DNA of 64,000 nt from Bacillota bacterium (GCA_023411795.1 JAEYOK010000027.1:62609-126608), one strand, 5' to 3'. Counted from the first letter of the stretch, positions 305 through 25,847 are shown. Numbers and translations: made by a program. Notes: generated by a model from the sequence alone, not told the origin.

Positions 305-1465
305 ATGGATTATATTGATGAAATAAAAAAAATTATAACCACACGACTGGGGAGCATCACGAAAAACAGAGAAGCTATACTAGATCATTTCAGGCAATTG
401 TCGACCTGCAAAGAAATATGCTTATTCGGGGCAGGTCAAGCGGGTAAATCGCTCTATTTTACTTTAAAAGAACAGAATATTAAAGTGGAATCGTTCTGCG
501 ACAATGACAGAAATAAGTGGGGAAAAATCGTTGTTGATTCTAAACCATGTATTTCATATAATGAGCTTTTAAAATACAAAGATAATGTAATTTGCGTTAT
601 TTCAACAGGACCCGGCTATGGCAGTGAAATATACAAGCAGTTATCAAAAAGCGGATTTAAAAATATATACGGAAGAGAGATATTTATTTCACAGACAGTT
701 CATCCTGACATTGTTCTTTATGATTCAGATGAAACATCTCAAAGGCTACTGCGAATAACACGTTTGCTCAATGATGAATACTCATTGAAAGTATTATTTT
801 ATAAGCTCAAATCTTTGACTGCCGAGTTGAACGAATGGATGAACTTCAGTTTTAATGATATCCTTGACAGGAACATCTATTTTATCGAGAATGGACGGTA
901 TCTGAAGGATAATTGTACAATAATCGATTGCGGTGCTTATAATGGAGATACTTTGTTGAATCTGATAGACACACTGAAATATGTGAACTTTCAGAATTAC
1001 ATTTGCTATGAGATGGATCCGGAGAATTTCGGACTGCTTCAGAATTTCATCGATAGACTACCTGACCCATTGCGGCAAAAAGTTACTGCATATAACCTAG
1101 GTATTGGTAAAAGCACAAGCAGTGTAAAGTATCGTGGTAATCTGCTCGATTGCTTCATTGATCCAAATGGGGAAAAAAATGCGGATGTCATTAAAATTGA
1201 TGATCATTTGAAAGGAATAGATGTCGATTTTATTAAAATGGATATTGAAGGCAGTGAGATGGATGCATTGATTGGAGCTGAGAAAACGCTGACAGAGTGC
1301 CGTCCTGTCTGCGCAATATCTATTTACCATAAGTTTGAAGATTTATGGGAAATCCCTTTATTTTTCGAAAAGGTTATTCCAGACTCCAGATTTATTCTTA
1401 GGCACCATAACAACTGCTATTATGATACGGTTTTTTATGCGATACCAGAAGAACGGATTTCGTAA
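305..1465 (+). CDS. FkbM-family SAM-dependent methyltransferase with N-terminal Rossmann-like (PglD_N/NeuD-like) module
   Basis: C-terminal half has IIDCGAYNGDT ... FIKMDIEGSEMDAL, typical of FkbM methyltransferases. N-terminus has CLFGAGQAGKSLY...FCDNDRNKWGK. RBS GGAGAG lies upstream. Confidence 0.8.
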   Translation: MDYIDEIKKIITTRLGSITKNREAILDHFRQLSTCKEICLFGAGQAGKSLYFTLKEQNIKVESFCDNDRNKWGKIVVDSKPCISYNELLKYKDNVICVISTGPGYGSEIYKQLSKSGFKNIYGREIFISQTVHPDIVLYDSDETSQRLLRITRLLNDEYSLKVLFYKLKSLTAELNEWMNFSFNDILDRNIYFIENGRYLKDNCTIIDCGAYNGDTLLNLIDTLKYVNFQNYICYEMDPENFGLLQNFIDRLPDPLRQKVTAYNLGIGKSTSSVKYRGNLLDCFIDPNGEKNADVIKIDDHLKGIDVDFIKMDIEGSEMDALIGAEKTLTECRPVCAISIYHKFEDLWEIPLFFEKVIPDSRFILRHHNNCYYDTVFYAIPEERIS

Positions 1466-1508
1466 AAGTCAAAATCTTTGTTTAATATTGTAAGGAACGG
1501 TAGCAGCA

Positions 1509-2333
1509 ATGGAAATTCCAAAGGCAGATTTCAGGAAAATTCAACTAATTATGTTGGAGATGCTGATTGAATTTGATCGGATATGCAATAAGAATAATAT
1601 TGTCTATTCTTTGGATGGTGGTACACTATTGGGAGCCATCCGCCATAAAGGCTTTATACCTTGGGATCCGGATATCGATGTCATCATGCATCGAAAGGAG
1701 TATGAAAAGTTCAGGGAAGCCTGTAAAGTTGATCTTGATACAAGGCGTTTCTTCCTACAGGACCACACTCTTGATCCCTATTACCGATGGGGTTATGCGC
1801 GCTTAAGGCGCAAAAGAACAGAATTTGTTCGAGCTGGACATGAACATATGAAATACAAAAGAGGAATTTTCATAGATATTATGCTTGTAGATAATGTGCC
1901 GGACAGCCGTTTTATGCGTCCTATACATAATTTTTTATGCTTCTGTATCAGAAAAATCCTATGGGCAGAAGCAGGTAAATTTTTGCATTCAAAATGGTAT
2001 GGTCGAATATGGTACCGGTTATTGTCACTGATACCTGCAGAATGGGTATTCAGTTTAAGAGATTGGATAGCAGGTATTAATAATGCCAGGAACACAGAAC
2101 TTATAAGGAGAATGACAGGCGAATACCCGAAAAGGTGCAAATACGGTACACCAAAATACTTTTATAATAATAGGGTTAAAGTTGAGTTTGAAGGACATAT
2201 GTTCTGGGCTTTTGAACAATATGATCAATATCTCAGGCTTGTTTACGGGGATTACATGCAATTACCGCCACCGGGAAAAAGGGTTCCTCATATTCCCTGT
2301 TCAAAATATAAGCTGATAGAGCCTGAATTATGA
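1509..2333 (+). CDS. licD: LicD-family phosphotransferase (phosphocholine/polyol-phosphate transferase family)
   Basis: Hallmark LDGGTLLGAIRHKGFIPWDPDIDV motif. Size of 274 aa is typical. Confidence 0.85.
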   Translation: MEIPKADFRKIQLIMLEMLIEFDRICNKNNIVYSLDGGTLLGAIRHKGFIPWDPDIDVIMHRKEYEKFREACKVDLDTRRFFLQDHTLDPYYRWGYARLRRKRTEFVRAGHEHMKYKRGIFIDIMLVDNVPDSRFMRPIHNFLCFCIRKILWAEAGKFLHSKWYGRIWYRLLSLIPAEWVFSLRDWIAGINNARNTELIRRMTGEYPKRCKYGTPKYFYNNRVKVEFEGHMFWAFEQYDQYLRLVYGDYMQLPPPGKRVPHIPCSKYKLIEPEL

Positions 2334-2436
2334 AATCACATATGTCATGCAGGACTTAGTGAGCAGAAAAACCGTAGCCAAAAATGAACCTATGCCCATC
2401 ATATAACGGTTAAGGATATGGAAGGAATAAACCTGT

Positions 2437-4008
2437 ATGGAGAAAGAAAGTCTTTATAATTTATTTGATAGTGGCTTTGCTCAGTATAAAGATATCCCTA
2501 TAGCTCTATATGGGTTGGGAATAAATACTAAATATCTTCTAGAGGAAGCAAAAACATATAATATTGTTGGAATTATTGCAAATGAAAGAATTGGCGAAAT
2601 TGTTTATGAAAAAGAAGTGATGGCAATCGAGTCAGTTCCGGGAAAAGTCAGAATAATTATTATTATTGCGCAGGCGAAATCAATCAAGACTATCTATGAA
2701 CGGATTAAGTACATTGAAGATACCGGGATTGATATTTATGACCTCTATGGGAAAAAACTGAAGGACTATTATGATGAAGAAACCCCAAATGCGGTAAAAC
2801 CTCTCACCTTTGAATCAGCCTCAGCGATGAGTTCTTATGACCGAATGCTATACTCTTCAGTGGCAAATGTAATTAAATATGCTGTAAATAAAAGTGATCA
2901 CAATGTTTTGTACCTATTTTCCCAGAAAGCCTTTCATGACCCCCTGTCATTTGTAAAAGCAAAAGGAAAATTAACAATAGATGATATGTACAAGCTGGGC
3001 TACTATTGCTTTGCACCCATAACCGCTAACTTTCTTGCATGGTTGGTTAAAGAGTTTGAGAATATCAATAAATCCATAATTCTTTTTTCATCAAGAGATG
3101 GATATTTACTATTCAAACTGTACAGGTACCTAACAATTATAAGGCCGGAGCTGGTGCTTCCGGAAGCAGAATATTTTTATATTTCAAGAAGAGCTGCAAC
3201 CGTTGCTTGCATTCGGAAAGAATCTGATATTGTTGATATTGTAGCTTCCGTTTTAAGGCTATCAATGGGAAACTTGCGGGAGACTTTGGAACAGCGTCTA
3301 GGAAAAGTATTTGATAAATGTGATCCCATCCTGAACCGTTCACTTACAGATGTTCTAGGAAATGATGAAATCGATAAGATCTCAGAGAGAGTTTTGAAAT
3401 ATAAAGCAGAAATACAGGAAAATGCGGCATTTGAACGAGAGAATTATTTTAAATATCTGAAAAAAATTAATCTTAGTTTATACAATAACATTTTTCTATT
3501 TGATTTATACTCAAGAGGAACAAATGTAACAAAGCTGGGTTCTCTGCTTGACAGAGAAGTGAAATTATTATGCTATGCCGTTAAGGATTATCCAAATGAA
3601 TATATCAACTCCGAAAATAAATTTAAAAGCATGTTTGATAGCTCCAAAATCATATCGGGAGAGTGGTTCAGAAGATGCTACCAGTTGTTTGAGATAGTAT
3701 ACGCATCATCTGAAGGACAACTTGAGTGTTTTAACAAGGATGGTCTCCCCCTATTCACTGAGAACAGTCAATATAACTATGGCTATATTCAGGAAGTGCA
3801 AAAAGGAATTACAGCTTTTATAAACGATTTGGACTCTTTTGACGATAATTGGTATAGGAACGAATTTAGCCTGGATATGGTGGATTTCATGTGCGGAATG
3901 CTGGCTCAAAGATATTCTGTTTTTTCCCCTGATATACGTAATGGTTTCTTATATCAGGACAGTTTCTCATCGGATGAAACTATAAATATTTGGGATAGTA
4001 TAATATGA
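2437..4008 (+). CDS. Uncharacterised two-module protein: N-terminal Rossmann-like module plus C-terminal 'RDG' module
   Basis: N-terminus IALYGLGINTKYLL...IIANERIG. The C-terminal ~370 aa are colinear with the C-terminal regions of the 7759..9921 and 11578..14796 products (ILFSSRDGYLLFKLY, FLFDLYSRGTN). Confidence 0.6.
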   Translation: MEKESLYNLFDSGFAQYKDIPIALYGLGINTKYLLEEAKTYNIVGIIANERIGEIVYEKEVMAIESVPGKVRIIIIIAQAKSIKTIYERIKYIEDTGIDIYDLYGKKLKDYYDEETPNAVKPLTFESASAMSSYDRMLYSSVANVIKYAVNKSDHNVLYLFSQKAFHDPLSFVKAKGKLTIDDMYKLGYYCFAPITANFLAWLVKEFENINKSIILFSSRDGYLLFKLYRYLTIIRPELVLPEAEYFYISRRAATVACIRKESDIVDIVASVLRLSMGNLRETLEQRLGKVFDKCDPILNRSLTDVLGNDEIDKISERVLKYKAEIQENAAFERENYFKYLKKINLSLYNNIFLFDLYSRGTNVTKLGSLLDREVKLLCYAVKDYPNEYINSENKFKSMFDSSKIISGEWFRRCYQLFEIVYASSEGQLECFNKDGLPLFTENSQYNYGYIQEVQKGITAFINDLDSFDDNWYRNEFSLDMVDFMCGMLAQRYSVFSPDIRNGFLYQDSFSSDETINIWDSII

Positions 4009-6533
4009 GGTTTAATATTATGAGGAAGTTTAAAAAGGATATTATTATAGACCTTACTAAGTCATTAAGAGAAGCATATGAAAAACTAATTCTACTAGTG
4101 GATGATGAAGATTATGAAGAGGTTTACAGTCTTTTGGAAATCTGCCAGCAGGGAGCTTTATCTATTGGCACATCTATTGAAGAGTCTGAAAGTAATTATG
4201 AAGAAATTATACCGGAGCTGGAGGCATACTGTGATGACCTTTATCTCATTGGCAATAAACTGGCAAATCATGATTATGATTTTGATTCAGTTTTTGCGTC
4301 CATAGACAGGCGGCTCATTTTAATTGATAACTTCATCATAAATAATGTAAGGGTTATATATGAAATTGCTTTTTTACCATACAACGCATCAATGTGGGAT
4401 TCAATGGAGAGTGTCTGGATGGCTGCTAATAAAGACTCAAGGTGCAACTGCTATGTAGTTCCCATACCCTATTACGAGATAACTGCAGATGGCTCGGTAA
4501 TGAAATATGAAGGTTCATCATTTCCAAAATATGTTCCGGTGGTTCATTATAACAGCTACAGTCTGCAAGACAGGAAACCTGATATTATATATATTCATAA
4601 TCCTTATGATCAGTATAACAGAGTAACCTCGGTTCATCCCTCCTTCTATTCTTCGGAATTGAAGAAGCATACAAATATGCTAGTATATATTCCATACTTT
4701 GTTACAGGAAGATTTGTACCTGAAACATTTTTAAGTCTTCCCTCCTATAATTATATTGATAAAATAGTGATACAATCTCATAATCAGCTCCGGTATTACA
4801 GGCAGCATATACCTGCTGGAAAGTTGATTGCCCTAGGTTCACCAAAAGTAGATAGGGTAATCTCTCTAAGCAAGCTACAGAAAAATTATCCTGAAGAATG
4901 GAAAAGCATAATTGGAAATAAAAAAGTTATTTTTTATAATACAAGCCTGTCGGGACTTCTTAAATACCGGGAAAAAGCCCTCGATAAAATGGAATACATA
5001 TTCTCAGTCTTTAGTAACAGGGATACGGAGGTCTTATTGTGGAGACCTCATCCTTTAAGCAAGGCCACCCTTCGTTCGATGGTACCTGAGCTGTATCAAA
5101 GATATTGCGAGCTAGAGCAGAAATTTATAAATGAAAATATTGGGATATATGACACCACCTCTGACGTTTCAAACTCAGTTGCACTATCAGATGCATATAT
5201 AGGAGAAGAAGGCTCATCTGTCGTCCACTTATTTGGGGTTACCGGTAAACCTATATTTTTGTTGGATATGGAGTTGCCGGAAGATATAATACATAAACAA
5301 GAAAATCTTGTGGGCTGCATGGATGCATATTTAGAAAATGATAATCTGTGGTTCATGCATTGCCACTATAATGCACTGTGCAAAATGGATATAAACACCG
5401 GAAAGGCAGAAATCGTAGATTTAGTTCCCTACGAACCTCTGAATAAGGACCGTTTGTTTTACGAAATAGTAAGAATAAATGAAAAACTGTATTTTGCTCC
5501 CCATAGGGCAAAAGAACTTGCTGTATATGATTTGTCAAAAAAACATTTTGTAGGGGTTGCCCATAAACGAGTTGTAAGAAATATAGCAACTCAGTTTTCA
5601 AGAATAGTCCATTATAAGGATTACCTGTTCATAATTCCCACCTATTACCCTGCACTGGTGAGATATGATATAAAAAATAATATATATAAATACTATCCCA
5701 ATTTTAATGATGCTCTGAAGATGGAAGGAAACAGAACTTATCAAAATGGTCCTCTATTTTTGAACGCAGTGTATGTTGAGGGAGATCTATTATTGGTTGC
5801 TTCAGCAATATCTAATACGGTCGTTGAGTTTAACATGGAAACTGAAAATATAAACATTCATAAAGTAGGAAGCGCTGGAAACAACTACTTTGGTATGGAA
5901 TACGATGGCAATGATTACTGGCTGATTCCCTACAAGAGCAAGGTAATCGTTAAGTGGAACAGAATAACGGGTCGGGCATTTGAGTATGCTCAATTCCCGG
6001 AGGGCTTTATTAGCGGAAACAATCCATTCTTTAGTATTATTAGTTGTAATGAATACATGCTGGCATTCCCTAAGCATGCAAATATGATAGTTAAAATAGA
6101 CAAGAATACAGGTCATATGAGTGAATATAAGCTACCCTTGCACTATAGAGAAGGTGACAGGAAGGAATCCTATTATAGTTGGGTCAACAACTACTATTTT
6201 GCTAAGAAATCCGATGATAGGCATGTACTGGCATTGACGGCTTACGATAGCAGTTTATTAATTATAGACGTCGAAGCCCAAACTTATGTCACTAAAAAAT
6301 GCATAATCGAGAAAAGAATCTTAGAGACTGAATTTGGACGCCTTGATGATAATTATCCATATGTACTTAAGGAGAGCTGTGACGTAAATCTGAAAGACTT
6401 TATTTATGAGCTGGAGGAAAAACGGGCTTTTGATCCTAATGTGCAATTAAAGGCATACTCATCAGTTTTTGATAATATGGATGGATCCTGCGGTGAAAAA
6501 ATACATAGCTTAATAATTAGTGATATCGTATAA
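4005..6533 (+). CDS. CDP-glycerol glycerophosphotransferase (TagB/TagF)-like protein with C-terminal six-fold repeat (beta-propeller-like) domain
   Basis: ATGA start/stop overlap with the upstream gene. Central region has FLPYNASMWDSMESVW...IYIHNPYDQYN...LVYIPYF...VLLWRPHP...SDAYIGEEGSS, the pattern of Glyphos_transf-type enzymes as I recall it. Aa ~440-765 contain six similar ~50-aa repeats. Confidence 0.6.
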   Translation: MRFNIMRKFKKDIIIDLTKSLREAYEKLILLVDDEDYEEVYSLLEICQQGALSIGTSIEESESNYEEIIPELEAYCDDLYLIGNKLANHDYDFDSVFASIDRRLILIDNFIINNVRVIYEIAFLPYNASMWDSMESVWMAANKDSRCNCYVVPIPYYEITADGSVMKYEGSSFPKYVPVVHYNSYSLQDRKPDIIYIHNPYDQYNRVTSVHPSFYSSELKKHTNMLVYIPYFVTGRFVPETFLSLPSYNYIDKIVIQSHNQLRYYRQHIPAGKLIALGSPKVDRVISLSKLQKNYPEEWKSIIGNKKVIFYNTSLSGLLKYREKALDKMEYIFSVFSNRDTEVLLWRPHPLSKATLRSMVPELYQRYCELEQKFINENIGIYDTTSDVSNSVALSDAYIGEEGSSVVHLFGVTGKPIFLLDMELPEDIIHKQENLVGCMDAYLENDNLWFMHCHYNALCKMDINTGKAEIVDLVPYEPLNKDRLFYEIVRINEKLYFAPHRAKELAVYDLSKKHFVGVAHKRVVRNIATQFSRIVHYKDYLFIIPTYYPALVRYDIKNNIYKYYPNFNDALKMEGNRTYQNGPLFLNAVYVEGDLLLVASAISNTVVEFNMETENINIHKVGSAGNNYFGMEYDGNDYWLIPYKSKVIVKWNRITGRAFEYAQFPEGFISGNNPFFSIISCNEYMLAFPKHANMIVKIDKNTGHMSEYKLPLHYREGDRKESYYSWVNNYYFAKKSDDRHVLALTAYDSSLLIIDVEAQTYVTKKCIIEKRILETEFGRLDDNYPYVLKESCDVNLKDFIYELEEKRAFDPNVQLKAYSSVFDNMDGSCGEKIHSLIISDIV

Positions 6534-6548
6534 GAGCAGGAGGAAATA

Positions 6549-7742
6549 ATGGATCAGAATTTTTTACAGGATGAAATGAGAAATGATTATAAGGTATTAA
6601 AAGAAATCAAGCAATTGTGGGCTGTTGAATTGGATCTGATTGAAATGCTTAAGGATGTGTGTGAGCGAAACCATTTAAAATATTTTATAGCCGGGGGAAC
6701 GCTTTTAGGTGCTGTCAGGCATAAAGGATTTATACCCTGGGACGATGATGTAGACTTTTTAATGCCAAGAGAGGATTTTGAAATACTAAAAAAAATTGCA
6801 CCTAGTGAATTTAAAGAACCATATTTCTTTCAAACCGAAGAAAGTGACCCTGATATTTTTCTGGGTGGTTATGCCAAGCTCCGAAATAGCAACACAACTA
6901 TGTTTGAAAATATACATTTTTATCATAATGCGAATTTTGGCATATGGATTGACATTTTTGTTCTCGATTACGTACATATGGATTTAAAAAAGAGAAAAAA
7001 GCAGATTAAGAGGATAAGAAATCTGCAAAAGCTGATCTATGCAATAAATTACAGAGAATATAAAAAGTTTCTGAAACTATCATGGATTTGTTGGACCATA
7101 TATAAAATAATAGCATTGTTCTGCAATAGAGCCCGGCTATGTAATCGGTTATTTAATGCCATGACATGCTGTAAAACATCAGACAGCCTTTCATGTTTAA
7201 ATTACAGCAGCAATAAATATTGGCCGATATGTTTCAATAAAGAGGATTTCAAAGGTTCAATAATGCTGGACTTTGAGCACTTGAAGTTGCCGGCTCCAAT
7301 TGGTTATGAAAATGTATTGAGATTGCTATATGGTAACGATTATATGGAATTTCCGCCTAAAGAACAACGAGAACCGCACCATAAAGTTATTCTTGAGCCG
7401 AGTATTTCATATAGAAGCTACCTCATAAAGTTTGAAAGAGTTTGTGAAGATTTTAAAGGAAAGACTATAGTCGTTTTTGGCGCGGGAAAGATGCTGGAGT
7501 ATTTTCTAGATCATGAAGGTAAAATTTATCCACCGGTATTTGTAGTCGATAATGACGGTAATAAATGGGGCACAAATGTGCATAACATACCCGTTAAACA
7601 GCCCCAATCAATCCTTATTATCCCAAATGAAAATTTGCGTCTTCTCATCTGCAGCATACATTATCGTGAAATTGCAAAACAACTCAGAGAAATGGGAATA
7701 GATAATTATTATATATACGTGCAGGAAAAAGACTGGCTTTAG
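6549..7742 (+). CDS. licD: LicD-family phosphotransferase with C-terminal Rossmann-like module
   Basis: FIAGGTLLGAVRHKGFIPWDDDVDF motif. C-terminus has TIVVFGAGKMLEYFL...VVDNDGNKWGT. Strong RBS AGGAGG. Confidence 0.85.
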   Translation: MDQNFLQDEMRNDYKVLKEIKQLWAVELDLIEMLKDVCERNHLKYFIAGGTLLGAVRHKGFIPWDDDVDFLMPREDFEILKKIAPSEFKEPYFFQTEESDPDIFLGGYAKLRNSNTTMFENIHFYHNANFGIWIDIFVLDYVHMDLKKRKKQIKRIRNLQKLIYAINYREYKKFLKLSWICWTIYKIIALFCNRARLCNRLFNAMTCCKTSDSLSCLNYSSNKYWPICFNKEDFKGSIMLDFEHLKLPAPIGYENVLRLLYGNDYMEFPPKEQREPHHKVILEPSISYRSYLIKFERVCEDFKGKTIVVFGAGKMLEYFLDHEGKIYPPVFVVDNDGNKWGTNVHNIPVKQPQSILIIPNENLRLLICSIHYREIAKQLREMGIDNYYIYVQEKDWL

Positions 7743-7758
7743 TAAATTGGAGGATATA

Positions 7759-9921
7759 ATGACTGACCTTTTTGAACTATACAGAATCGCAGTTGAGAGC
7801 TCCTTTAAAGAGAGTTTTGAAAAATATAAGGACAAAAGAATCATACTCTATGGGACCGGTGATATTGCCCGTTTTATTATGGACAAGTATTCGGACTACA
7901 ATATTATTGGTTTTTTGGATGGAAGCAGAAGCCACGGTGTAAAGCTGGGCAAGAGAATACTTTCTTATGAAGAAGCTGTACAGCAACATCCTGATATTAT
8001 TATTGTCGCAGCTAAAAAAGAGCATTTAAAAATGATTTACGACAGAATCTGTTATATGTGTTATACAAATAATATTCAGCTATATTCCATAGATGGAAGA
8101 AATCTCTTTACCGTTTTTGGATATGGCGGGCTGTCAGCCAAACAGGAATCGTTCGGTGAATTAAGTGAATCCATGCTTAAGGAGGAGATTCTTAAGCATG
8201 ATATTATATGCTTTGAGGTTTTTGATGTGCTCCTCATACGAAAAACGCTTATAAAGGCAGATTTATATAAGATAATAGAAGACAGGCTATGCAAGAAAGG
8301 AATAAACATCCCTGAATATAGCGATCTAAGGCATGGGCTTGAGAATGAGGTGATGTCAGCAGGCGGTAATATTTATGACATCTACGAAAAGTTGGCAGCC
8401 CGTGCAGGAATGAATCGGGAAACAGCCGAGACAGCGTTGGAGACTGAGCTTGCTGTCGAAAATGATTTATTGTGCTGCCGGGACAAAATGAAGGAATTGC
8501 TATTGTTTGCGGTTAACAGCGGAAAAAAAATATACCTTCTCTCCGACACATATTTCCCTTCCGATATTTTAAGGAGAATATTGAATAAGCATGGAGTCAC
8601 ACAATATGATGGCATGTTTCTATCATCCGAATATAAGACAGCAGAAACACAAGAATTATATGGCATTTTTAAATCCATAGTAAAAGGACATTCATACCTC
8701 AATATAATTGCAACCAAGGATAGCGATGATTATTACTCAGTCGAAGATATGGATATCTTTGAAATACCACGCCCCTACGACCTACTTCTTATGTCCTCAT
8801 ACAGGAATCTCAAATATAGTTTTAACTCTATAAATCATCGTTCCATGGTCGGTTTGCTTTCCTCAAGGCTGTTTTCCAATCCCTTTGCATTATACAGAAA
8901 GGCAGGACGTCCTGAGATAAATAGTATATATGATTTCGGTTATACATTTATTGCTCCGTCTTTAGCAAAATATGTACTTTGGATTATTGATACTGTTAAA
9001 GAAGGACAATATGATAATGTGCTTTTTGCTGCTCGTGACGGATTTATTACATATAAACTATATAACATAGCACAACAAGAGCTTGACATTAAGCTACCAG
9101 AAGGTATTTATTTTCAGACCTCTCGAAATTTATGTATTAATTCGGCTGTAGAAGATGAAAACGATATTCAATGGATTGCGGGTATACCCCATGCTTACTC
9201 TCCTGAGTTAATGTTAATGCAAAGATTCAGTCTTACTGAAAAGGATATCATTCAATATGATGAGAGCAGATTTACGGATGTAGTATCATATGCCTTACAT
9301 CACAAGGATAGTATTCTTGAAAATGCTAATATGGTACGGATGAACTATTTAAAATATATGGAATCGATCGGACTAAAAAAGAATAAAAACTATGCATTTG
9401 TTGATTTTGTATCGTCTGGTACCTGCCAGCAGATGCTTAACAGATTTGTACCCTTCAATATTGACGGCTTATATTTTTGCAGATATGTTATAAATAATGA
9501 TCTAAAGGAAGACCTGGTTATGAAAGCCATGTTCCAGAATCTATCGGAATCGAACATGTTTTGCAGCTATTCTTTTCACAATTATATGTTTTTGGAAACT
9601 ATGATGACTTCACTAGTGCCTTCAATAGTTAGTATGAATGAGAATGGATTACCGATATACGCCAAGGAAACCCGAAGTAACGAAGAACTTAATTATGTTA
9701 TTGATATTCATAAGGCAGTAGAGGATTATTTCAATGATTTTATTCAGAATCTTTACGCTAAAGATTCTGAAATTAATAAGCATTTTGTAGATTCTATACT
9801 AAGTTATAGGGAACATGAATTTACAAATGAACATTGTGATTTCTTTAATGATTTATACTTGTTTGAGGATCTGGGTAAAGGAAGAATTCCAGTATATAGA
9901 AAAACTATGGGTGGATCATAA
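7759..9921 (+). CDS. Rossmann-like module + degenerate HAD-like module + 'RDG' module protein
   Basis: ATG at 7759 follows GGAGG; the track ORF starts at a TTG at 7747. It contains RIILYGTGDIARF, then ICFEVFDVLLIRK and KIYLLSDTYF (HAD-like but lacking the key Asp), then VLFAARDGFITYKLY. Confidence 0.6.
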   Translation: MTDLFELYRIAVESSFKESFEKYKDKRIILYGTGDIARFIMDKYSDYNIIGFLDGSRSHGVKLGKRILSYEEAVQQHPDIIIVAAKKEHLKMIYDRICYMCYTNNIQLYSIDGRNLFTVFGYGGLSAKQESFGELSESMLKEEILKHDIICFEVFDVLLIRKTLIKADLYKIIEDRLCKKGINIPEYSDLRHGLENEVMSAGGNIYDIYEKLAARAGMNRETAETALETELAVENDLLCCRDKMKELLLFAVNSGKKIYLLSDTYFPSDILRRILNKHGVTQYDGMFLSSEYKTAETQELYGIFKSIVKGHSYLNIIATKDSDDYYSVEDMDIFEIPRPYDLLLMSSYRNLKYSFNSINHRSMVGLLSSRLFSNPFALYRKAGRPEINSIYDFGYTFIAPSLAKYVLWIIDTVKEGQYDNVLFAARDGFITYKLYNIAQQELDIKLPEGIYFQTSRNLCINSAVEDENDIQWIAGIPHAYSPELMLMQRFSLTEKDIIQYDESRFTDVVSYALHHKDSILENANMVRMNYLKYMESIGLKKNKNYAFVDFVSSGTCQQMLNRFVPFNIDGLYFCRYVINNDLKEDLVMKAMFQNLSESNMFCSYSFHNYMFLETMMTSLVPSIVSMNENGLPIYAKETRSNEELNYVIDIHKAVEDYFNDFIQNLYAKDSEINKHFVDSILSYREHEFTNEHCDFFNDLYLFEDLGKGRIPVYRKTMGGS

Positions 9922-11562
9922 ATGGCTATATTTAATTCTGAAAGAAATATCCATGAGGAAAACTTAAAAGAATTAACAGCAGTTGAAAAAGTCATATGTG
10001 ATTACATTGCTCAGAATGGCTCCGATAATTATGACACTTTGATTTCTGCAGATGATAGATGGAAAGTATTCTATCATTTATCGGGTATGAGAAAATCGCT
10101 GCTTAATTGGTATGAGTTTAAAAAAGATTCGTCATTGCTTGAGGTTGGCGGAAGTTTTGGCGCTCTGACAGGGCTATTCTGTGACAGATGCAGAGAAGTT
10201 ACATCTGTCGAACGCTTCCTGCACAAGGCTGAGCAGATATATGAACGGCACAAAAACAGAGATAACCTTACCGTATATGCTGGCAGGATTGAAGATGTTC
10301 AGTTCAAAGATAAGTTCGACTATATAACAGTTATAGGAACACTCGAATATATAGCTAAAGGAAAGCCTGACAGAAGCATATACTCTGATTATCTCAAGAA
10401 ACTTAAAGGATTGCTTAAGCCCGGAGGGAAAATTCTTCTCGCTGTTGAAAATAGATACGGATTAAGGTATTTTTGCGGCGCTCCCAATCCCCATACCGGA
10501 GTACCATTCTCGGGAATTAATGGATATCCCCACAGCAATGATGGATATTCATTCAGCAAAAAAGAAATAACCGATGTTATTGAAACCGCAGGTTTTAAGT
10601 ATATGAAATTTTACTATCCCCTGCCTGATTATAAGCTTCCCCAGTTAATATACTCACAGGATTATATACCTCAAGCTAGTATTCGGGAAAGAGTAATCCC
10701 TTATTATTTGAACCCCTCATCTTTATTGGCATATGAGAATGATTTATATGATGATGTCATTGAAAACAAGGTTTTGGACTTCTTTTCAAACTCGTTCTTA
10801 ATTGAATGCTCTGATTCTGAATATTTCTGTGATGTTGTTTATGCGGCACTTTCCACCGACAGAGGACGTGAAGATGGTTTTGCCACTACTATCCACAGTA
10901 CAGACATCGCAAAGAAAACGGCTCTTTACCCTGAGGGAATTAGACGGCTGGAAACTATTACAAGAAACCATAAAGAGCTTGAAGACCGGAACATAAAAGT
11001 TGTTGAATCTAAACTCTCTGATAACGCCCTCCTTATGCCGTATATTCATGATGATACTTTATCGGATTACTTGAAAAAAATTATTAAGGTGGATAAAGAT
11101 ACGTTTGTATACCTATTTGACAAGCTTTTTGAGTGTATCCTGAAATCGTCAGGACATGTTTCAAAAGAGCATATTAAACTAAATTGTAAAGATTATTCTA
11201 TAGATTTTGGCACTATATTGGAAAAAGCATACATTGATATGATTCCCATAAACTGCTTTTATCGCAAAGGAGATTTCATTTTCTTTGATCAGGAGTTCAC
11301 AAGAGAGTTTTATCCGGCAAAATATGTGCTTTTCAGAGCATTAAAATATACCTATCACTTTATAAAAGAGGCAGATAATTTAATCACGCTGGAGTCGATG
11401 AAAAATAGGTATGGACTGTCCGGTTTATGGGACCTATTTGAAGAAGAAGAATATAACTTTGTTTCACAGAACAGGAAGTATGATGTAAACAGAGGTTTTT
11501 TCTCCCGTGCATATGTAGACAAAGAAAAAATTTATAGAAATGCTTTGGATTTATTGAAGTAA
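9922..11562 (+). CDS. Class I SAM-dependent methyltransferase fused to a protein-kinase-like/aminoglycoside-phosphotransferase-like C-terminal domain
   Basis: Motif I LLEVGGSFGALTG and motif LLKPGGKILLAVEN. The C-terminal half has AYIDMIPINCFY and DFIFFDQEF, resembling APH/choline-kinase catalytic motifs. Confidence 0.7.
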   Translation: MAIFNSERNIHEENLKELTAVEKVICDYIAQNGSDNYDTLISADDRWKVFYHLSGMRKSLLNWYEFKKDSSLLEVGGSFGALTGLFCDRCREVTSVERFLHKAEQIYERHKNRDNLTVYAGRIEDVQFKDKFDYITVIGTLEYIAKGKPDRSIYSDYLKKLKGLLKPGGKILLAVENRYGLRYFCGAPNPHTGVPFSGINGYPHSNDGYSFSKKEITDVIETAGFKYMKFYYPLPDYKLPQLIYSQDYIPQASIRERVIPYYLNPSSLLAYENDLYDDVIENKVLDFFSNSFLIECSDSEYFCDVVYAALSTDRGREDGFATTIHSTDIAKKTALYPEGIRRLETITRNHKELEDRNIKVVESKLSDNALLMPYIHDDTLSDYLKKIIKVDKDTFVYLFDKLFECILKSSGHVSKEHIKLNCKDYSIDFGTILEKAYIDMIPINCFYRKGDFIFFDQEFTREFYPAKYVLFRALKYTYHFIKEADNLITLESMKNRYGLSGLWDLFEEEEYNFVSQNRKYDVNRGFFSRAYVDKEKIYRNALDLLK

Positions 11563-11577
11563 AAGAGGAGAAATGTC

Positions 11578-14500
11578 ATGAATACTAGCAAGCTCATATC
11601 AATTGTTATTCCTGTATATAATACTGAGATCTATCTGGAGAGGTGTTTGCAAAGTCTGATAAACCAGACTTACCGCAATCTCCAGATTATTGTAGTCAAT
11701 GATGCTTCACCGGGAAATGTTAATGAAATTATGGAGCATTATCAAACCATAGATAATCGTATCGTATATATAGAGCACAAAAAAAACATTGGAGTCTTTA
11801 AGGCCAGAATTTCGGGCTTGCAGGCGGCAAACGGAGAATATATCTCATTTGTCGACAGCGACGATTATATAGGAACTGATTATTACCGTTTATTAATTTC
11901 TGAAGCAGAAAAAAGTCAGGCTGACATGGTTTTTTCCAGAACCGTACTAGTAGGTCAGGAGAAAACCGTCTTTGGAATGCATGAAGTAGCATTCCCAAAT
12001 GAAATTATTGACGGTGAAAGTATCTTTTTAGATTTTTTTCTTGCTCAGGAAGGAAGATGCTACAATTGGCATACCTTATGGAACAAGCTATATAAAAAGA
12101 CCCTATGGGATAAATGCCTTATCTTTTTTGATCAATACAAAGAACATATTAATATGATGGAAGATATAGCCTGCTCCTTTCCCTTATTTTATTATGCCCG
12201 AAAAATAAGCAAGGTTGAAAATAGTGTTTATTATTATTGCCAGAATACCGGAAGTGCTACTGATGCTAAGACAGCATCATTTGAAAAGCTTAAGAAAAAT
12301 CTTGCTGACACATTCAGAATATTTGAAATAGTCGAAGAATTTTTAAAATCAATCAATGCTTCTGATAAGGTATTCAGCAAATATTATGATTTCAGGAACT
12401 ACTATATAAGAGATTGGAAGAATGGTATAGAGTTTTTCAACGACTCCGAAGAAAGAAAGGTACTTACCGGTATGATTACATCCACATATGGTGAAATAGG
12501 TAATTATATATTGGATGACAGGTTCTTCAGATCAGTGCGAACAATCTGGAATGATGATATAGAAGAGATAAAGAAGAAAATCTGTAATCCTGAATATGAA
12601 TATATAAGCTTTGATATTTTTGATACTTTAGTCACAAGACCATTTTACAGACCTAGTGACTTATTCCATCTACTAGACAAACTTTTCGAGAAGATTTACA
12701 AAGCAAAATTAAGTTTCCACCAAATCAGAATAGATGGAGAGATAAGTGCAAGAGTAAATCTGCAAAAAAGCAGCTTAGGTTTCCAAGATATTACTATAGA
12801 TGAGATATATGATAGTATCAGTGAAATATACGGAATACCAGCAAACATTTGTTCAGCTTTGAGAGAAGAAGAGAAAAGACTTGAAATCTTCTTTTGCACC
12901 ATCAGGAAAACTACAAAAGAGCTGTTTGACCTTGCTAAATATTCAGGTAAAAAAATAATTCTTGTATCGGATATGTACCTCGACAAGAGTACTATTGAAA
13001 GCATTCTTCATAAAAATGGGTATACAGGTTACGAACGAATATTCCTTTCATCAGAAGAGCGGCTTCTTAAGCATACGGGAGACCTTTTCAAAAAAGTTCT
13101 TGGCGTTCTGAAGGTTGATGGAAGCAAAATCCTCCATATAGGTGATAACCATTACTGCGATGTGACCAAAGCGAATGAAGCCGGCTTACACACAGTATAT
13201 CTACCACGGACGATCAACGTTTTTGAAAACAAAGTAAAAGAGCTTGATACCAGAGAATGCAGTACTCTTGCACAAAATGTCAGCGGTGTAATACTTGATG
13301 GAAGCAGGTTTCTTGAGTCAGTTGGGTACGGCTCAATGATAGCAATTGTAGCAAACCATTACTTCGATAATCCGTTCCGTCCTTTTAACAGTGAGAGCGA
13401 TTATAATGCTGATCCATACTTTATAGGGTATTATGCTTTGGGGATGCATTTGGCGGGTTTAATAAACTGGATATTACAGCAATCTTACGTTTATAAAAGA
13501 ATCCTGTTTATGGCGCGTGATGGTTTTCTTGTAAAGCAGGCATATGATATATGGACTGCGTCTATGGACAATACCCCTGTATCGGATTATGTCTATGCTT
13601 CGCGGAAAATGCTTCTCCCAGCATCTATTGAAAATACTGCTGATTTTTTTAATCTGCCTATTGTATATAGCAGTTACAATGCCATATCAATTCTTGAGTT
13701 ATTGGACTTCTGCACAAATGATACGTCTGAAGAAATACGCAGTGCTATTTTTGAAGAAAACAAGATTCAGGAAAACCTAAATTTCAAGACGAAGAATGAA
13801 TATTTTGAATTTATGAAATTCTATTTAAAATATTTCTATAATGAGGAAAAGCATAATGACTCAAAACAGTTATTAAAAGAATACTATGACGGGATCAGTA
13901 ACGCAGACATTATATTTGATATAGGCTACACAGGCAGTGTACCGTATGCATTTAAGCAGATTTCAGGTAAATCTATTGACGCTTTATTTGTATATAGCAG
14001 TATTGCGAAGACTTCACAAATGAGTCGCAAGGGCAATTTCAAAATCAAAACTTTCTATGATTTTACTCCTGAGGTCCCAATGTTGTTGAGAGAGCATGTC
14101 TTATCCGCTCCTCACCCTTCATGTATAGGATTAAATCAAAAAAGTGATAAGATTATACCCATCTTCGAGGATACAGAAAAATCCTATACCGATACTTTCG
14201 TCATAAACAGGCTACATGAGGGGGCATTACAGTTTATTAAGGATTTCTCAGGGTATTTCAGGGATTATCTTGATTATACCATGTTTAAAAGCTATGAGGT
14301 TTCCATGCCATTTGAAGCTTTCCTCAGAATTCCTACAGGCAAGGACTTACAAATATTTGAAAGCTCCTATTTTGAGGATAAGGTTTATGGACGGCAAAAT
14401 GCTATTAATATTGCAAGATATATAGAAAACTATTACAAGTCATTGCCTCAGTATACCAGTAATAATATGGTAGAATCCCTAAGAGATTCTTTGATTGATA

Positions 14501-14796
14501 ACATAAAATATAACCGCAAGCTAGTTTGCTTTGGTACAGGGAAAAAATGTAGAGAATTTTTATCCGAATATCCCGATATCCCTGTGAGCTTTTTCTTGGA
14601 TAATGATAGAAAATTAGCCGGTACTTATTTGAATAATAAAGAGATACGGCATCCTGAGCAAGTTGATAACTGGAACAGCATTTATATAATAATTACTACG
14701 TATTATAGTTCCGAGATTGAAAAGCAGCTAAGAAACCTTGGTCTGGAAAAATACAAAAACTTTATTAGTTTTCAGGAGTTATTTGGCATTGCATAA
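11578..14796 (+). CDS. Multidomain GT2 glycosyltransferase - HAD-like hydrolase/phosphatase - 'RDG' module - Rossmann-like module fusion (1072 aa)
   Basis: N-terminus ISIVIPVYNTEIYLERCLQSLINQTYRNLQIIVVNDAS and FVDSDD are GT2 (GT-A) motifs. ISFDIFDTLVTRP, ILVSDMY and IGDNHYCD are HAD motifs I, II and IV. ILFMARDGFLVKQAY follows, and the C-terminus has KLVCFGTGKK...LDNDRKLAG. RBS GAGGAG. Confidence 0.8.
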   Translation: MNTSKLISIVIPVYNTEIYLERCLQSLINQTYRNLQIIVVNDASPGNVNEIMEHYQTIDNRIVYIEHKKNIGVFKARISGLQAANGEYISFVDSDDYIGTDYYRLLISEAEKSQADMVFSRTVLVGQEKTVFGMHEVAFPNEIIDGESIFLDFFLAQEGRCYNWHTLWNKLYKKTLWDKCLIFFDQYKEHINMMEDIACSFPLFYYARKISKVENSVYYYCQNTGSATDAKTASFEKLKKNLADTFRIFEIVEEFLKSINASDKVFSKYYDFRNYYIRDWKNGIEFFNDSEERKVLTGMITSTYGEIGNYILDDRFFRSVRTIWNDDIEEIKKKICNPEYEYISFDIFDTLVTRPFYRPSDLFHLLDKLFEKIYKAKLSFHQIRIDGEISARVNLQKSSLGFQDITIDEIYDSISEIYGIPANICSALREEEKRLEIFFCTIRKTTKELFDLAKYSGKKIILVSDMYLDKSTIESILHKNGYTGYERIFLSSEERLLKHTGDLFKKVLGVLKVDGSKILHIGDNHYCDVTKANEAGLHTVYLPRTINVFENKVKELDTRECSTLAQNVSGVILDGSRFLESVGYGSMIAIVANHYFDNPFRPFNSESDYNADPYFIGYYALGMHLAGLINWILQQSYVYKRILFMARDGFLVKQAYDIWTASMDNTPVSDYVYASRKMLLPASIENTADFFNLPIVYSSYNAISILELLDFCTNDTSEEIRSAIFEENKIQENLNFKTKNEYFEFMKFYLKYFYNEEKHNDSKQLLKEYYDGISNADIIFDIGYTGSVPYAFKQISGKSIDALFVYSSIAKTSQMSRKGNFKIKTFYDFTPEVPMLLREHVLSAPHPSCIGLNQKSDKIIPIFEDTEKSYTDTFVINRLHEGALQFIKDFSGYFRDYLDYTMFKSYEVSMPFEAFLRIPTGKDLQIFESSYFEDKVYGRQNAINIARYIENYYKSLPQYTSNNMVESLRDSLIDNIKYNRKLVCFGTGKKCREFLSEYPDIPVSFFLDNDRKLAGTYLNNKEIRHPEQVDNWNSIYIIITTYYSSEIEKQLRNLGLEKYKNFISFQELFGIA

Positions 14797-14825
14797 ATGA
14801 AAACATTAAAAAAGGAGAAATAATT

Positions 14826-15257
14826 ATGAAACCTTATAAAACTGGTTATATTGCGGGTGTTTTTGATTTATTTCACATAGGACACCTGAACCTTCTCCGA
14901 AAGGCAAAGGATAAATGTGAATACTTAATAGTGGGCATATTAACAGATGAACTGGTTCATCATTTTAAGAACAAGCTGCCTTTTATTAACCAGGATGACC
15001 GAAAAGAGATTGTACAGGCTATTAAATATGTTGATCAGACAGTTTTGGTTTCTTTTGATAATATCGATAAAATGAAAGCATGGGAATTATATCATTTTGA
15101 CTGCTTATTTTCCGGTGATGACTGGAGGAACGAGCCAAGCTGGGCTGCGGACAAAAAGAGACTGAATGAGGTTGGCTCAAACATCGAATTTTTCACATAT
15201 ACTCAAGGTATCAGCTCCACGCAAATTAGGAGCCAGATTCAAAATGAAAACAAATAG
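14826..15257 (+). CDS. tagD: Glycerol-3-phosphate cytidylyltransferase (TagD/TarD family)
   Basis: GVFDLFHIGHLNLLRKAK (HxGH motif) and YTQGISSTQIR match the TagD family, and the 143-aa size fits. RBS AGGAGA. Confidence 0.85.
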   Translation: MKPYKTGYIAGVFDLFHIGHLNLLRKAKDKCEYLIVGILTDELVHHFKNKLPFINQDDRKEIVQAIKYVDQTVLVSFDNIDKMKAWELYHFDCLFSGDDWRNEPSWAADKKRLNEVGSNIEFFTYTQGISSTQIRSQIQNENK

Positions 15258-15282
15258 AAAGATATGAATATTTTCTTCACTC

Positions 15283-16014
15283 TTATCCAAAGATCTGAGA
15301 GGTTTCTCTGGCATCAAGCATTGCCTTGAACATATAAAAATCTATCGCGGTCGTTACCTTTAGATTATCAGCAGAGCCTAATACCTGACGAAGTTTATGA
15401 CCGTAATAACTCATAAGTGACGCTGTATCAATAAAGTTCATTTTATTTTCTGAATTTGCTTTTTTATGAACGGCTAATACATCCTTAATATAAAAGCTCT
15501 GGGGTGCCTTTGCTACTCTTGCAGTATTACGATCAATAACCTGATCTATAAAACCTTCACTATTAACAGTGACAACCGTTTCATACTGATATGCGACAGT
15601 AACTCCGCTGCCATATTTTTTGACTGACTCGATATTTTGGGAAATCAGCTGTTGGTTTATCAAAGGCCTGACACCATCATGAAGCAGAACAATATCATCA
15701 TCCGAAAGGTCTACATTCTCTTCTATTTTTTTTAGTGCATTATAAATTGAACTCTGTACTGTTTCTCCGCCTTTAACAATCCACCTTACCTTTTTTATTC
15801 CAAAACGACATAATTCATTTTTAAGTGTTTCAATCCAGCTTTCAAGACATGCGACAACAATGAAATCAATATCTGGATGAAACTCAAAATGCTCTATCGT
15901 GTGTAATAAAATCGATTTGCCATGTAGCTCCAAAAATTGCTTCGGTTTGGTTTGACTATTCATGCGTACTCCGGTACCGCCTGCAAAAATAACTGCTATA
16001 TTCAATAGTGACAC
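15283..16014 (-). CDS. IspD/TarI-family cytidylyltransferase (CDP-ribitol / CDP-polyol synthase-like)
   Basis: N-terminal AVIFAGGTGVRM...KPKQFLELHGKSIL is typical of the IspD/TarI nucleotidyltransferase fold. GTG start. Convergent with tagD. Confidence 0.75.
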   Translation of the reverse strand: MSLLNIAVIFAGGTGVRMNSQTKPKQFLELHGKSILLHTIEHFEFHPDIDFIVVACLESWIETLKNELCRFGIKKVRWIVKGGETVQSSIYNALKKIEENVDLSDDDIVLLHDGVRPLINQQLISQNIESVKKYGSGVTVAYQYETVVTVNSEGFIDQVIDRNTARVAKAPQSFYIKDVLAVHKKANSENKMNFIDTASLMSYYGHKLRQVLGSADNLKVTTAIDFYMFKAMLDARETSQIFG

Positions 16015-25154: not shown

Positions 25155-25847
25155 TCATTTTTCAGCAATTGCAATAACCATTGAATGAATAAAAGAGACA
25201 CCTTTTTCTTTTAATATTTTAGCACAAGTATTAATCGTTGTTCCAGTTGTTAATACATCATCTACCAATAAAATGCTTTTTCCCTGGATAGAAGACCCTG
25301 AACGTACAGAAAAAGCTCCTTCAAGATTTTTTATTCTGTCCTCTCTTTTTAGCAAACTTTGGGCGCGGGTATATTGTGTTTTAATAAGAATGTCGGTTCT
25401 TATCTCTCTATTAAAGTATTTAGCTAAATGTACCGCAATCAACTCCGATTGATTGTATCCTCTATGTCTCTTTTTTCTGGGGTGCATAGGGACAGGTACT
25501 ATATAATCAAATGTCGGTATCTGTCCATACTTATTGAGTTCTTCATATATAAGGTAACTCATAGTTTCAGAAAGTTTCGGCTGATTTTTGAACTTGAATG
25601 TATGAATTGCAGTCTCAACCCCATCCAGATAGTAAAATGCAGCGAAAAAGCTATCAACATCGGGAAGGATACCGCTTTCTCCGAAACCTCTTCCGTAGCT
25701 TTTAAGGCCTTTTCTGCATTGTTCGCATAGACATACTAAAGAATCCTCCCTTAAGATTGCTTCACAAACCATGCATTTTACAGGGAAGATCAACCGTATA
25801 ATTCTCTCAATCAGTGAGACTGGCTTCAAGTTAGTTACTGATTCCAC
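25155..25847 (-). CDS. comFC: ComF family protein (ComFC-like, phosphoribosyltransferase fold)
   Basis: N-terminal CxxC...CxxC and C-terminal ILLVDDVLTTGTT PRTase motif. Overlaps the recD2 end by 17 nt. Confidence 0.85.
   Translation of the reverse strand: MESVTNLKPVSLIERIIRLIFPVKCMVCEAILREDSLVCLCEQCRKGLKSYGRGFGESGILPDVDSFFAAFYYLDGVETAIHTFKFKNQPKLSETMSYLIYEELNKYGQIPTFDYIVPVPMHPRKKRHRGYNQSELIAVHLAKYFNREIRTDILIKTQYTRAQSLLKREDRIKNLEGAFSVRSGSSIQGKSILLVDDVLTTGTTINTCAKILKEKGVSFIHSMVIAIAEK

Follow-up and report, generated by a model that had tools for sequence, protein, structure and literature searches.

RDG modules of three multidomain proteins from a probable flagellin glycosylation island are predicted glycan phosphoribosyltransferase domains

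We analysed a stretch of 64,000 nucleotides (nt) from a Bacillota bacterium (GCA_023411795.1 JAEYOK010000027.1:62609-126608), the whole of which is called the window below. Three of its open reading frames (ORFs), A (2437..4008), B (7759..9921) and C (11578..14796), encode multidomain paralogues sharing a module that is named here after its Arg-Asp-Gly (RDG) motif and that an earlier note on this DNA could not assign to a named catalytic family. By profile and predicted fold, the module is a catalytic glycan phosphoribosyltransferase domain, termed gPRT by the Whitfield laboratory and CriT in the work on the capsule polymerase Bcs3 of Haemophilus influenzae type b (Hib). The modules are new members of a family characterised in 2022-2023; the family itself is not new. 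Considering homology, the characterised homologues and synteny together, we regard it as highly probable that these gPRT modules serve a ribofuranosylation dependent on phosphoribosyl pyrophosphate (PRPP), in conjunction with a phosphoribose phosphatase (PRP), in the synthesis of a cytoplasmic flagellin O-glycan.

Bcs3 combines three catalytic domains, namely the TagF-like ribitol-phosphate transferase CroT, the HAD phosphatase CrpP, and CriT, a ribofuranosyltransferase of 'a yet undescribed GT fold' resembling phosphoribosyltransferases (PRTases). CriT puts ribofuranose-5-phosphate (Ribf-5-P) from PRPP on the growing chain, and CrpP then strips the 5-phosphate (PMC10299916). PRP and gPRT are the Whitfield laboratory names for the phosphatase and the transferase, and PRPP-dependent activity was shown for enzymes of Klebsiella pneumoniae O4 and O7 and for Salmonella STM0726 (PMC11127046, PMC11231755, PMC11294581). 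The same chemistry is performed by Campylobacter jejuni Cj1432, a fusion of GT4, HAD and gPRT domains (PMC12096443).

All three ORFs were confirmed on the + strand and encode 523 (A), 720 (B) and 1072 (C) amino acids (aa). For B, an in-frame TTG at 7747, four codons 5' of the ATG at 7759, is the start in the mechanical ORF list, and the 720-aa form starting from the ATG is the one found in the public protein collection. In pairwise BLASTP comparisons, A and B matched with 27% identity over 344 aa (E=2.9e-26), B and C with 25% identity over 428 aa (E=6.1e-21), and A and C with E=7.2e-8, a similarity that is, at the sequence level, far above chance; the likeness of B to C also covers the HAD-like domain N-terminal to the module. 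The colinear region that the earlier note had proposed for the three proteins is thereby borne out as one homologous, autonomous module, with every motif it quoted present in the same order and at the same places and with the fusions it described to glycan-enzyme domains (a small Rossmann-like domain, HAD and GT2). Its size estimate of ~330 aa was too small, since the module measures ~385 aa (380-390).

We modelled the structure of the module of A with AlphaFold2 (AF2) and assigned B and C by homology. The model of A aa 134-523 (pLDDT 96.0, pTM 0.93) was searched against the Protein Data Bank (PDB) by Foldseek, which returned eight matches at E<=1e-3, all from three entries of only two proteins, the polysaccharide ribofuranosyltransferase of Thermobacillus composti (Tc; 7SHG) and Bcs3 (8A0C/8A0M). 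These had E values of 2.7e-8 to 2.4e-6, probability 1.0, query TM-scores of 0.43-0.55 and 335-384 aligned columns. The next-best match had E=0.08, and HGPRT structures appeared only in a weak tail (probability 0.2-0.3), as is expected from a PRTase-like core. In module numbering, the core strands of the model lie at 80-85, 110-114, 218-222, 243-246 and 263-265/296-299, and the inserted helices 129-211 separate strand 2 from strand 3, which matches the division of CriT into CriT-CAT (655-715 and 796-903) and HB-2 (716-795). In this modelled fold, helical bundles interrupt and flank a five-stranded alpha/beta core that is PRTase-like.

Sequence profiles led to the same two proteins. A profile built from an alignment of 148 family members (A3) matched Bcs3 with E=5.6e-41, continuously from FDIFDTL in CrpP through F-I-S-R-D-G and Y-G-S-R-K to F-V-E-F-W-G-R-G-Y-T, and matched 7SHG with E=4.2e-31 in two stretches, PRP 26-255 and gPRT 298-626. 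The six-sequence, module-only profile A2 still reached Bcs3 with E=5.6e-7, and C aa 335-960 alone matched 7SHG by phmmer with E=5.4e-15. The type I PRTase model PF00156 matched none of A, B and C, while it did match a ComF-like ORF in the window (25155..25847). Structure and profile thus both gave confident matches to a characterised family, and the module can be named after all. Among the three roles suggested before (transferase, hydrolase or acceptor recognition), transferase is the one that the evidence supports. Four other guesses from the motifs were dropped, since gPRT is the only family indicated by AF2/Foldseek and the profiles: an ASKHA domain ('DxGxT'), the motif I of S-adenosylmethionine (SAM)-dependent methyltransferases ('hhDhGxGxG'), a second HAD domain, and a TagF-like GT-B fold.

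The motifs shared by A, B and C map onto the PRPP site of CriT. We transferred residues through HMMER alignments to Bcs3 (chain index minus 1 giving the native numbering) and through an alignment made with MAFFT. Across the 148 members, the columns that are invariant or nearly so are the R, D and G of RDG, Y..SR, the D...G of FD..GT and one Glu; within them the R of RDG and the S and R of Y..SR are invariant and the D of RDG is near-invariant. All family-invariant active-site residues are kept in A (R220, D221, S250, R251, D356, G361, T362, E419), B (R426, D427, S455, R456, D549, G554, T555, E613) and C (R647, D648, S675, R676, D781, G786, S787, E839). Loop 1, which reads S219-R220-D221 in A, A425-R426-D427 in B and A646-R647-D648 in C, corresponds to CriT S678/R679/D680 and to L-S-R-E-G in 7SHG. 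The Y-x-x-S-R of loop 2 aligns with CriT S707/R708, and the F-D-x-x-x-x-G-(T/S) of loop 3 with E818 and the loop 821-825/T825 (FVEFWGRGYT in Bcs3, IVDVGWKGT in 7SHG), the acidic residue being Asp in place of Glu in all three proteins, as in 7SHG. The invariant Glu aligns with the E of YEVLL in 7SHG.

In CriT, S678-R679-D680 bind the beta-phosphate and ribose (Asp the ribose, Arg the beta-phosphate), S707-R708 bind phosphate, E818 binds ribose and 821-825/T825 the 5-phosphate; D680 and E818 together stand in for the PRTase 'DD' motif, and D680A and E818A lower Bcs3 activity (PMC10299916). The two Asp residues, in RDG and in FD..G(T/S), that the earlier note had named as targets for mutation are the counterparts of D680 and E818, and these targets are well chosen. 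The remaining motifs NYFKYL/NYLKYM/EYFEFM and G(L)P(L/I) and the final helix (VQKG.../IHKA.../LHEG...) are present and colinear in A, B and C. Coordinates of the module, its motifs and the other features of the locus are collected in Table 1.

Table 1. Features of the locus, in nt of the window unless residues (aa) are given
Feature	Position	Strand	Basis or remark
Sugar epimerase/dehydratase, C-terminus	2-~286	+ (frame 2)	window starts inside gene
FkbM-family methyltransferase with N-terminal Rossmann-like domain	305..1465	+	PF05050 E=3e-13
Rossmann-like domain of the FkbM methyltransferase	368-670		
LicD-family phosphotransferase	1509..2333	+	PF04991 E=2e-37
A, Rossmann-like domain (C2185-like_N type), N-terminal ~100 aa	2464..2760	+	BLASTP to B N-terminus 1e-11, to ORF 6549 C-terminus 0.006
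A, gPRT/CriT-like module (aa 134-523)	2836..4005	+	AF2 model, Foldseek, key residues; no HAD (PRP) domain in A
842-aa protein: helical bundle, divergent TagF-like CDP-alcohol phosphotransferase domain (probable), beta-propeller	4005..6533	+	AF2, Pfam scans of homologues
LicD-family phosphotransferase with C-terminal Rossmann-like domain	6549..7742	+	PF04991 E=1e-43; BLASTP
Rossmann-like domain of the second LicD protein	7431-7736		
B, Rossmann-like domain, N-terminal	7804..8106	+	BLASTP; weak PglD_N E=0.016; weak PF22674 on L061 orthologue
B, degenerate HAD/PRP-like domain (aa ~140-339)	8176..8775	+	MAFFT with C, Bcs3 CrpP and 7SHG PRP
B, gPRT/CriT-like module (aa 340-720)	8776..9918	+	BLASTP to A E=2.9e-26; in profiles A2 and A3
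Class I SAM methyltransferase (546 aa)	9922..11562	+	PF08241, PF13489
C, N-terminal GT2 (GT-A) glycosyltransferase domain	11578..12567	+	PF00535 E=7.9e-32, aa 8-138
C, intact HAD-type PRP/CrpP-like phosphoribose phosphatase, predicted (aa 335-564)	12580..13269	+	Pfam Hydrolase, NCBIfam HAD-IA; alignment with CrpP and 7SHG PRP
C, gPRT/CriT-like module (aa 565-~960)	13270..14457	+	BLASTP to B 6.1e-21, to A 7.2e-8; phmmer to 7SHG, 2 stretches
C, Rossmann-like domain (C2185-like_N type), C-terminal	14515..14778	+	BLASTP to ORF 6549 C-terminus 5e-9; PF22674 E=0.0063
TagD-like cytidylyltransferase (CDP-alcohol donor supply)	14826..15257	+	PF01467 E=3e-19; TIGR01518 E=2.6e-22, below the model's cut-off
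TarI/IspD-like cytidylyltransferase	15283..16014	-	NF001183 (D-ribitol-5-phosphate cytidylyltransferase) 185.9 bits, cut-off 166
Methyl-accepting chemotaxis protein-like gene, N-terminal transmembrane segment	16176-17903	-	sequence reading and hydropathy scan
Motif AFHDPL/LFSNPF/YFDNPF	aa A165/B371/C595		
Motif LGYY/FGYT/IGYY	aa A187/B393/C616		
Motif RDG, A	aa 220-222, nt 3094-3102	+	
Motif RDG, B	aa 426-428, nt 9034-9042	+	
Motif RDG, C	aa 647-649, nt 13516-13524	+	
Motif Y..SR	aa A248-251/B453-456/C673-676		
Motif FD..G(T/S)	aa A353-362/B547-555/C779-787		

The three paralogues differ in the HAD domain that precedes the gPRT in the characterised enzymes. Far from being an incidental fusion partner, this domain forms the other catalytic half of one two-step enzyme. 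In C it has all four motifs, namely I, FDIFDTL, with D346 corresponding to the nucleophile D386 of CrpP, II, SD (VSDMY), III, a Lys, and IV, GDNHYCD. In B, motif I reads FEVFDVL, with E153 replacing the Asp nucleophile, the Lys of motif III is changed to Glu, and the GDN of motif IV to ATK. The B orthologue of the related locus L061 shows the same degeneration (FEIFDVL, ...ITANT...), so the domain, though conserved in sequence, is probably inactive, a likely pseudo-phosphatase with a structural role. In A the HAD domain is missing altogether, while the A orthologues P0007 and P0010 still carry one with degenerate motifs. C alone thus has an intact PRP, and A and B belong to the gPRT family yet are not complete bipartite Ribf glycosyltransferases. 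In the A3 alignment, the nucleophile column held Asp in 97 of the 113 occupied rows and Glu in 8. A rough regular-expression survey of 206 family proteins found a canonical PRP in ~100, the others being degenerate, without the domain or too short upstream (some are fragments). In published work, the PRP-dead variant STM0726 D14A gives a Ribf-5-P product (PMC11294581), and separated CriT and CroT-CrpP fragments of Bcs3 function in trans (PMC10299916). With PRP absent from A and degenerate in B, these two proteins would either leave Ribf-5-P in place or depend on the PRP of C in trans.

We then considered the genomic context of the locus. Downstream of the glycosylation genes lies the gene for a methyl-accepting chemotaxis protein (MCP)-like protein, followed by fliW, flgL, two flgK genes and flgN (flgN-flgK-flgK-flgL-fliW at 18.3-24.2 kb). 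The MCP-like gene sits between the glycosylation genes and fliW, a position occupied in many Bacillota by csrA and flagellin, as in the gene order of B. subtilis. Two orthologous loci, L061 and L062, were reached via P0002, a 72%-identical orthologue of A, and have the order FlgN-FliS-FliD-FlaG, flagellin, GT2-TPR, epimerase, LicD, A, an 841-aa protein, LicD, B, methyltransferase and C; the GT2-TPR and flagellin genes precede the epimerase in their upstream regions (L061 5615-8953, L062 884-4228). Given this order and a window that begins inside the epimerase gene, the island and a flagellin gene probably extend ~3-4 kb upstream of the window.

A transmembrane-like segment is absent from all ten proteins of the locus (KD19 of at most 1.65, versus 3.42 in the neighbouring MCP as positive control), and no initiating phosphoglycosyltransferase, flippase, polymerase, ABC exporter or LCP ligase was found in nt 1-16,000. 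From the synteny and this lack of membrane and export components, the locus is a probable flagellin glycosylation island whose acceptor would be a cytoplasmically built flagellin O-glycan. Within 10 kb on either side of a gPRT homologue in 57 related loci, we found HAD in 56, GT2 in 38, homologues of the 546-aa methyltransferase in 36, LicD in 33, the TagD-like cytidylyltransferase in 32 and GT2-TPR in 13. In one of the two adjacent FlgK paralogues in the window (21417-23489, -), FlgK_D1 is separated from the C-terminal rod domain by an inserted von Willebrand factor A domain (PF00092, E=2.5e-7, aa 304-441). In L062, the B orthologue is present as two ORFs (315 and 375 aa; 10599-12745) on one metagenomic contig, for which a frameshift, a pseudogene or an assembly error are possible explanations.

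By analogy with the biochemically characterised enzymes (K. pneumoniae O4 and O7, Bcs3, STM0726 and Cj1432), we propose that the module would bind Mg-PRPP through the RDG, SR and D...G(T/S) loops. The Arg of RDG and the Ser-Arg of Y..SR would hold phosphates, the ribose hydroxyls would be bound by the Asp of RDG together with that of FD..G(T/S) in the manner of a split PRTase 'DD' motif, and the G-T/S loop would bind the 5-phosphate. Beta-D-ribofuranose-5-phosphate would then move from PRPP to a hydroxyl of the growing glycan with release of pyrophosphate, and the N-terminally adjacent HAD domain (PRP/CrpP), here that of C, would remove the 5-phosphate so that the chain could be extended. C would in this scheme be a complete GT2, PRP and gPRT enzyme, parallel in architecture to Cj1432, and the initiating transferase may be the upstream GT2-TPR protein beyond the window. 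The context suggests that the same glycan also receives a hexose or N-acetylhexosamine from the GT2 of C, methyl groups from the two methyltransferases, and phospho-alcohol units derived from cytidine diphosphate (CDP)-linked donors, transferred by the TagF-like protein and the two LicD proteins and supplied by the TarI-like and TagD-like cytidylyltransferases.

Because two of the three gPRT paralogues have lost the phosphatase function, we also put forward, as a tentative extension that is possible rather than probable, that the flagellin O-glycan retains Ribf-5-P and carries polyol-phosphate units, a chemistry like that of the Hib capsule and teichoic acids built cytoplasmically on a protein. 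The retained 5-phosphate would then serve on purpose as a charge or a cap, perhaps methylated by the methyltransferases of the island, the dead PRP would persist solely for its structural partnership with the gPRT, and gPRTs without PRP would have been missed by the published surveys that used PRP as marker.

Several observations weigh against PRPP-dependent ribofuranosylation of a flagellin glycan as proposed here. The PRPP donor, the anomeric outcome, the acceptor and the linkage are all carried over from homologues that are 14-25% identical. A phmmer search with full-length B or the module of A against all PDB sequences gave zero matches, so the link of A and B to gPRT rests on profiles and fold. 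The Foldseek TM-scores are moderate (~0.5) with root-mean-square deviations of 5-7 A, and considerable structural differences between the Tc enzyme and Bcs3 have been noted in published work. Of the CriT residues, R712 is not conserved, and S678 of loop 1 is replaced by Ala in B and C. The alignment with A2 stopped at ~855 of Bcs3 and no other went past it, short of the proposed CriT base E874, to which the invariant Glu (A E419, B E613, C E839) may correspond; to extend it over ~856-960, the C-terminal part of 7SHG was used as a query and matched only itself. The target is also open to question: the window holds no flagellin gene and flagellin is taken as the target from the synteny of orthologous loci, only 9 or more of the 57 related loci had flagellar filament genes by tblastn with flagellin, FliD, FliS and FlaG (at least 3 in an earlier tblastn screen with FlgK, FlgL, FliW and FlgN), and at least one relative, P0018, adjoins a Wzm/Wzt ABC transporter. 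Both counts are lower bounds, as the 10-kb flanks are shorter than the island. The position of P0018 indicates that the family serves more than one glycan type.

These last points lead to the strongest rival, according to which the gPRT assignment is right, the product is a secreted or cell-wall polymer (a teichoic-acid- or capsule-like ribosyl/polyol-phosphate glycan), and the flagellar neighbours are coincidental. All characterised gPRT enzymes indeed act on O-antigens or capsules, and the locus holds a teichoic-acid-type toolkit of TarI-like, TagD-like, TagF-like and LicD proteins, which together with P0018 and the few related loci with filament genes speak for such a polymer. We nevertheless regard it as unlikely, given that nt 1-16,000 encode no export or lipid-carrier machinery and no protein with a transmembrane-like segment, that the orthologous loci open with flagellin followed by GT2-TPR, which we read as the fliC-fgtA arrangement of Clostridioides difficile, and that TagF-like, CDP-dependent enzymes are established in a flagellin glycan pathway (FtaD; bioRxiv 10.64898/2026.02.12.704994).

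Two other explanations concern the module itself. At least one of the three modules might be a pseudo-gPRT, a non-catalytic scaffold or acceptor-recognition domain that organises a multienzyme complex. The island tolerates pseudo-domains, as the PRP of B illustrates, B and C have Ala for the loop-1 Ser, and Salmonella T1 synthesis needs the GT-A protein STM0725 as a partner of the Ribf transferase with no required glycosyltransferase activity (PMC11294581). Against this, R-D-G, S-R, D...G-T/S and the invariant Glu are kept in all three paralogues, each of which falls in a conserved orthologue group with conserved synteny, and we consider the idea very improbable. The reading implied by the earlier note, a new unnamed catalytic family unrelated to known enzymes, could appeal to the empty single-sequence PDB searches with A or B and to the absence of a Pfam-A or NCBIfam model for the module. 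It is hardly tenable in view of the profile and fold matches to two solved, characterised relatives with the same catalytic residues and the same PRP-gPRT order, whose own gPRT domains also lack a Pfam model.

The size of the family was estimated by searching profile A2 against 1.84 billion cluster representatives, which gave at least 6,602 matches at E<=1e-3 and 887 at E<=1e-30. The commonest architecture was a protein of ~710 aa with the module at ~335-715, as in B, and a second frequent form of ~580-600 aa consisted of HAD and the module. A word-indexed protein search found 11 close relatives of A, and the GTDB species genomes with relatives were almost all Bacillota (Paraclostridium, Clostridium, Paenibacillus, Lachnospiraceae and Selenomonadales). 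No Pfam-A or NCBIfam model matched the module in A, B or C, C being recognised for GT2 and HAD only, and the gPRT domains of the solved 7SHG and Bcs3 CriT likewise matched no Pfam-A model. The absence is thus an annotation gap that says nothing on novelty, and it explains why the module could not be named before and why family members are annotated as hypothetical proteins. Judging by these matches, the RDG-module family is large and widespread and has no model in Pfam or NCBIfam, a gap that the present searches expose. We found no literature on COG5610.

Among the other proteins of the locus, the 842-aa protein had no Pfam or PDB-sequence match of its own. It has more than 3,700 homologues, and in its AF2 model (pLDDT 92.6) an alpha/beta domain and a beta-propeller accompany an N-terminal helical bundle. 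Eight of 10 homologues (36-48% identity) passed the gathering score of PF04464, the TagF-type CDP-glycerol glycerophosphotransferase model, over aa ~240-420, and a ninth (P0295) passed it at its C-terminus only. Foldseek with the whole model returned propeller matches only, and profile A4 found nothing useful among PDB sequences; with Foldseek swamped by the propeller and A4 unproductive, the TagF-like assignment rests on PF04464 in homologues. We consider the protein a probable soluble CDP-alcohol phosphotransferase, divergent in sequence and joined to a propeller, and a candidate counterpart of the CroT step of Bcs3. The TarI/IspD-like enzyme is, by its sequence match, a probable CDP-ribitol synthase.

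Five proteins encoded in the island carry a Rossmann-like domain of ~100 aa, which is N-terminal in A, B and ORF 305 and C-terminal in ORF 6549 and C. At relaxed thresholds, these small terminal domains gave only weak PglD_N and C2185-like_N hints, and PF22674 was precomputed on orthologues of neighbouring proteins. Possible roles are nucleotide or acceptor binding and complex assembly. At the far end of the window, four consecutive ORFs (57041-63578, -; 325, 195, 677 and 645 aa) had no Pfam-A match at E<=1e-5.

These results make testable enzymes of three multidomain proteins so far 'hypothetical', by predicting for them a donor (PRPP), catalytic residues and a two-step mechanism. They suggest that PRPP-dependent ribofuranosylation, documented for O-antigens and capsules, also occurs in flagellin glycosylation islands of Bacillota (Clostridia, Paenibacillus, Selenomonadales). 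The modestly novel aspects are the probable flagellin-glycan context and the presence of an intact, a dead and an absent PRP partner in one locus, a trio that provides a natural test of whether removal of the 5-phosphate is invariable.

We finally compared the locus with known systems. The module is like type I PRTases (HGPRT, OPRT and UPRT; PF00156) in its predicted PRPP donor, five-stranded parallel sheet and phosphate loop after an acidic residue, but its 'DD' is split over two loops and its product would be an O-glycoside on a glycan instead of an N-riboside. In gene content, the island resembles the fliC-fgtA-ftaABCD locus of C. difficile, in which flagellin is likewise followed by the gene of an initiating glycosyltransferase (fgtA/cd0240 there, GT2-TPR as the probable one in L061 and L062), FgtA itself being, we presume, a GT2-TPR protein. 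Both also have a soluble CDP-dependent TagF-like phosphotransferase, a probable one here, and a methyltransferase. FgtA (cd0240) is the flagellin glycosyltransferase of C. difficile and the CDP donor there is CDP-(N-methyl)threonine (bioRxiv 10.64898/2026.02.12.704994), whereas the TarI-like and TagD-like genes here suggest CDP-ribitol or CDP-glycerol. No gPRT or PRP is listed for the C. difficile locus (bioRxiv 10.64898/2026.02.12.704994), so no ribose is expected there.

Bcs3 (8A0C/8A0M) shares with the proteins described here a HAD domain directly N-terminal to a PRTase-like transferase with helical bundles, the conserved S/A-R-D, S-R and acidic residue with phosphate loop, and a link to CDP-ribitol-type chemistry, since TarI-like and TagF-like genes accompany A, B and C as TagF-like CroT does CriT. 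It differs in fusing CroT, CrpP, CriT and SH3b into one polymerase for a capsule exported by an ABC transporter, whereas the TagF-like enzyme here is separate and fused to a beta-propeller, three gPRT paralogues are present, two of them without a working PRP, the loop-3 acidic residue is Asp and not Glu, identity is ~15%, and the likely substrate is a protein-linked glycan. T. composti 7SHG and the K. pneumoniae O4 ORF5 and O7 ORF7 proteins have the two-domain PRP-gPRT order and the same motifs (SREG, VSRK, VDVGWKGT and YEVLL in 7SHG). These dual-domain prototypes stand alone in O-antigen loci, while A, B and C add GT2 and/or C2185-like_N Rossmann-like domains, and A is PRP-less and B PRP-degenerate.

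The Salmonella T1-antigen enzyme STM0726 (PRP-gPRT) polymerises Ribf. Its gPRT acts with a GT-A-fold protein, STM0725, which is separate and apparently non-catalytic, whereas the GT2 of C is fused; the D14A variant, whose dead PRP leaves Ribf-5-P in place and restricts extension, offers a model for the possible behaviour of A and B. Cj1432 differs from C in having GT4 where C has GT2 (GT-A), in ending in a four-helix bundle where C ends in a Rossmann-like domain, and in building a capsule, and is like C in uniting a conventional glycosyltransferase, a phosphatase and a PRPP-dependent ribosyltransferase in the same order.

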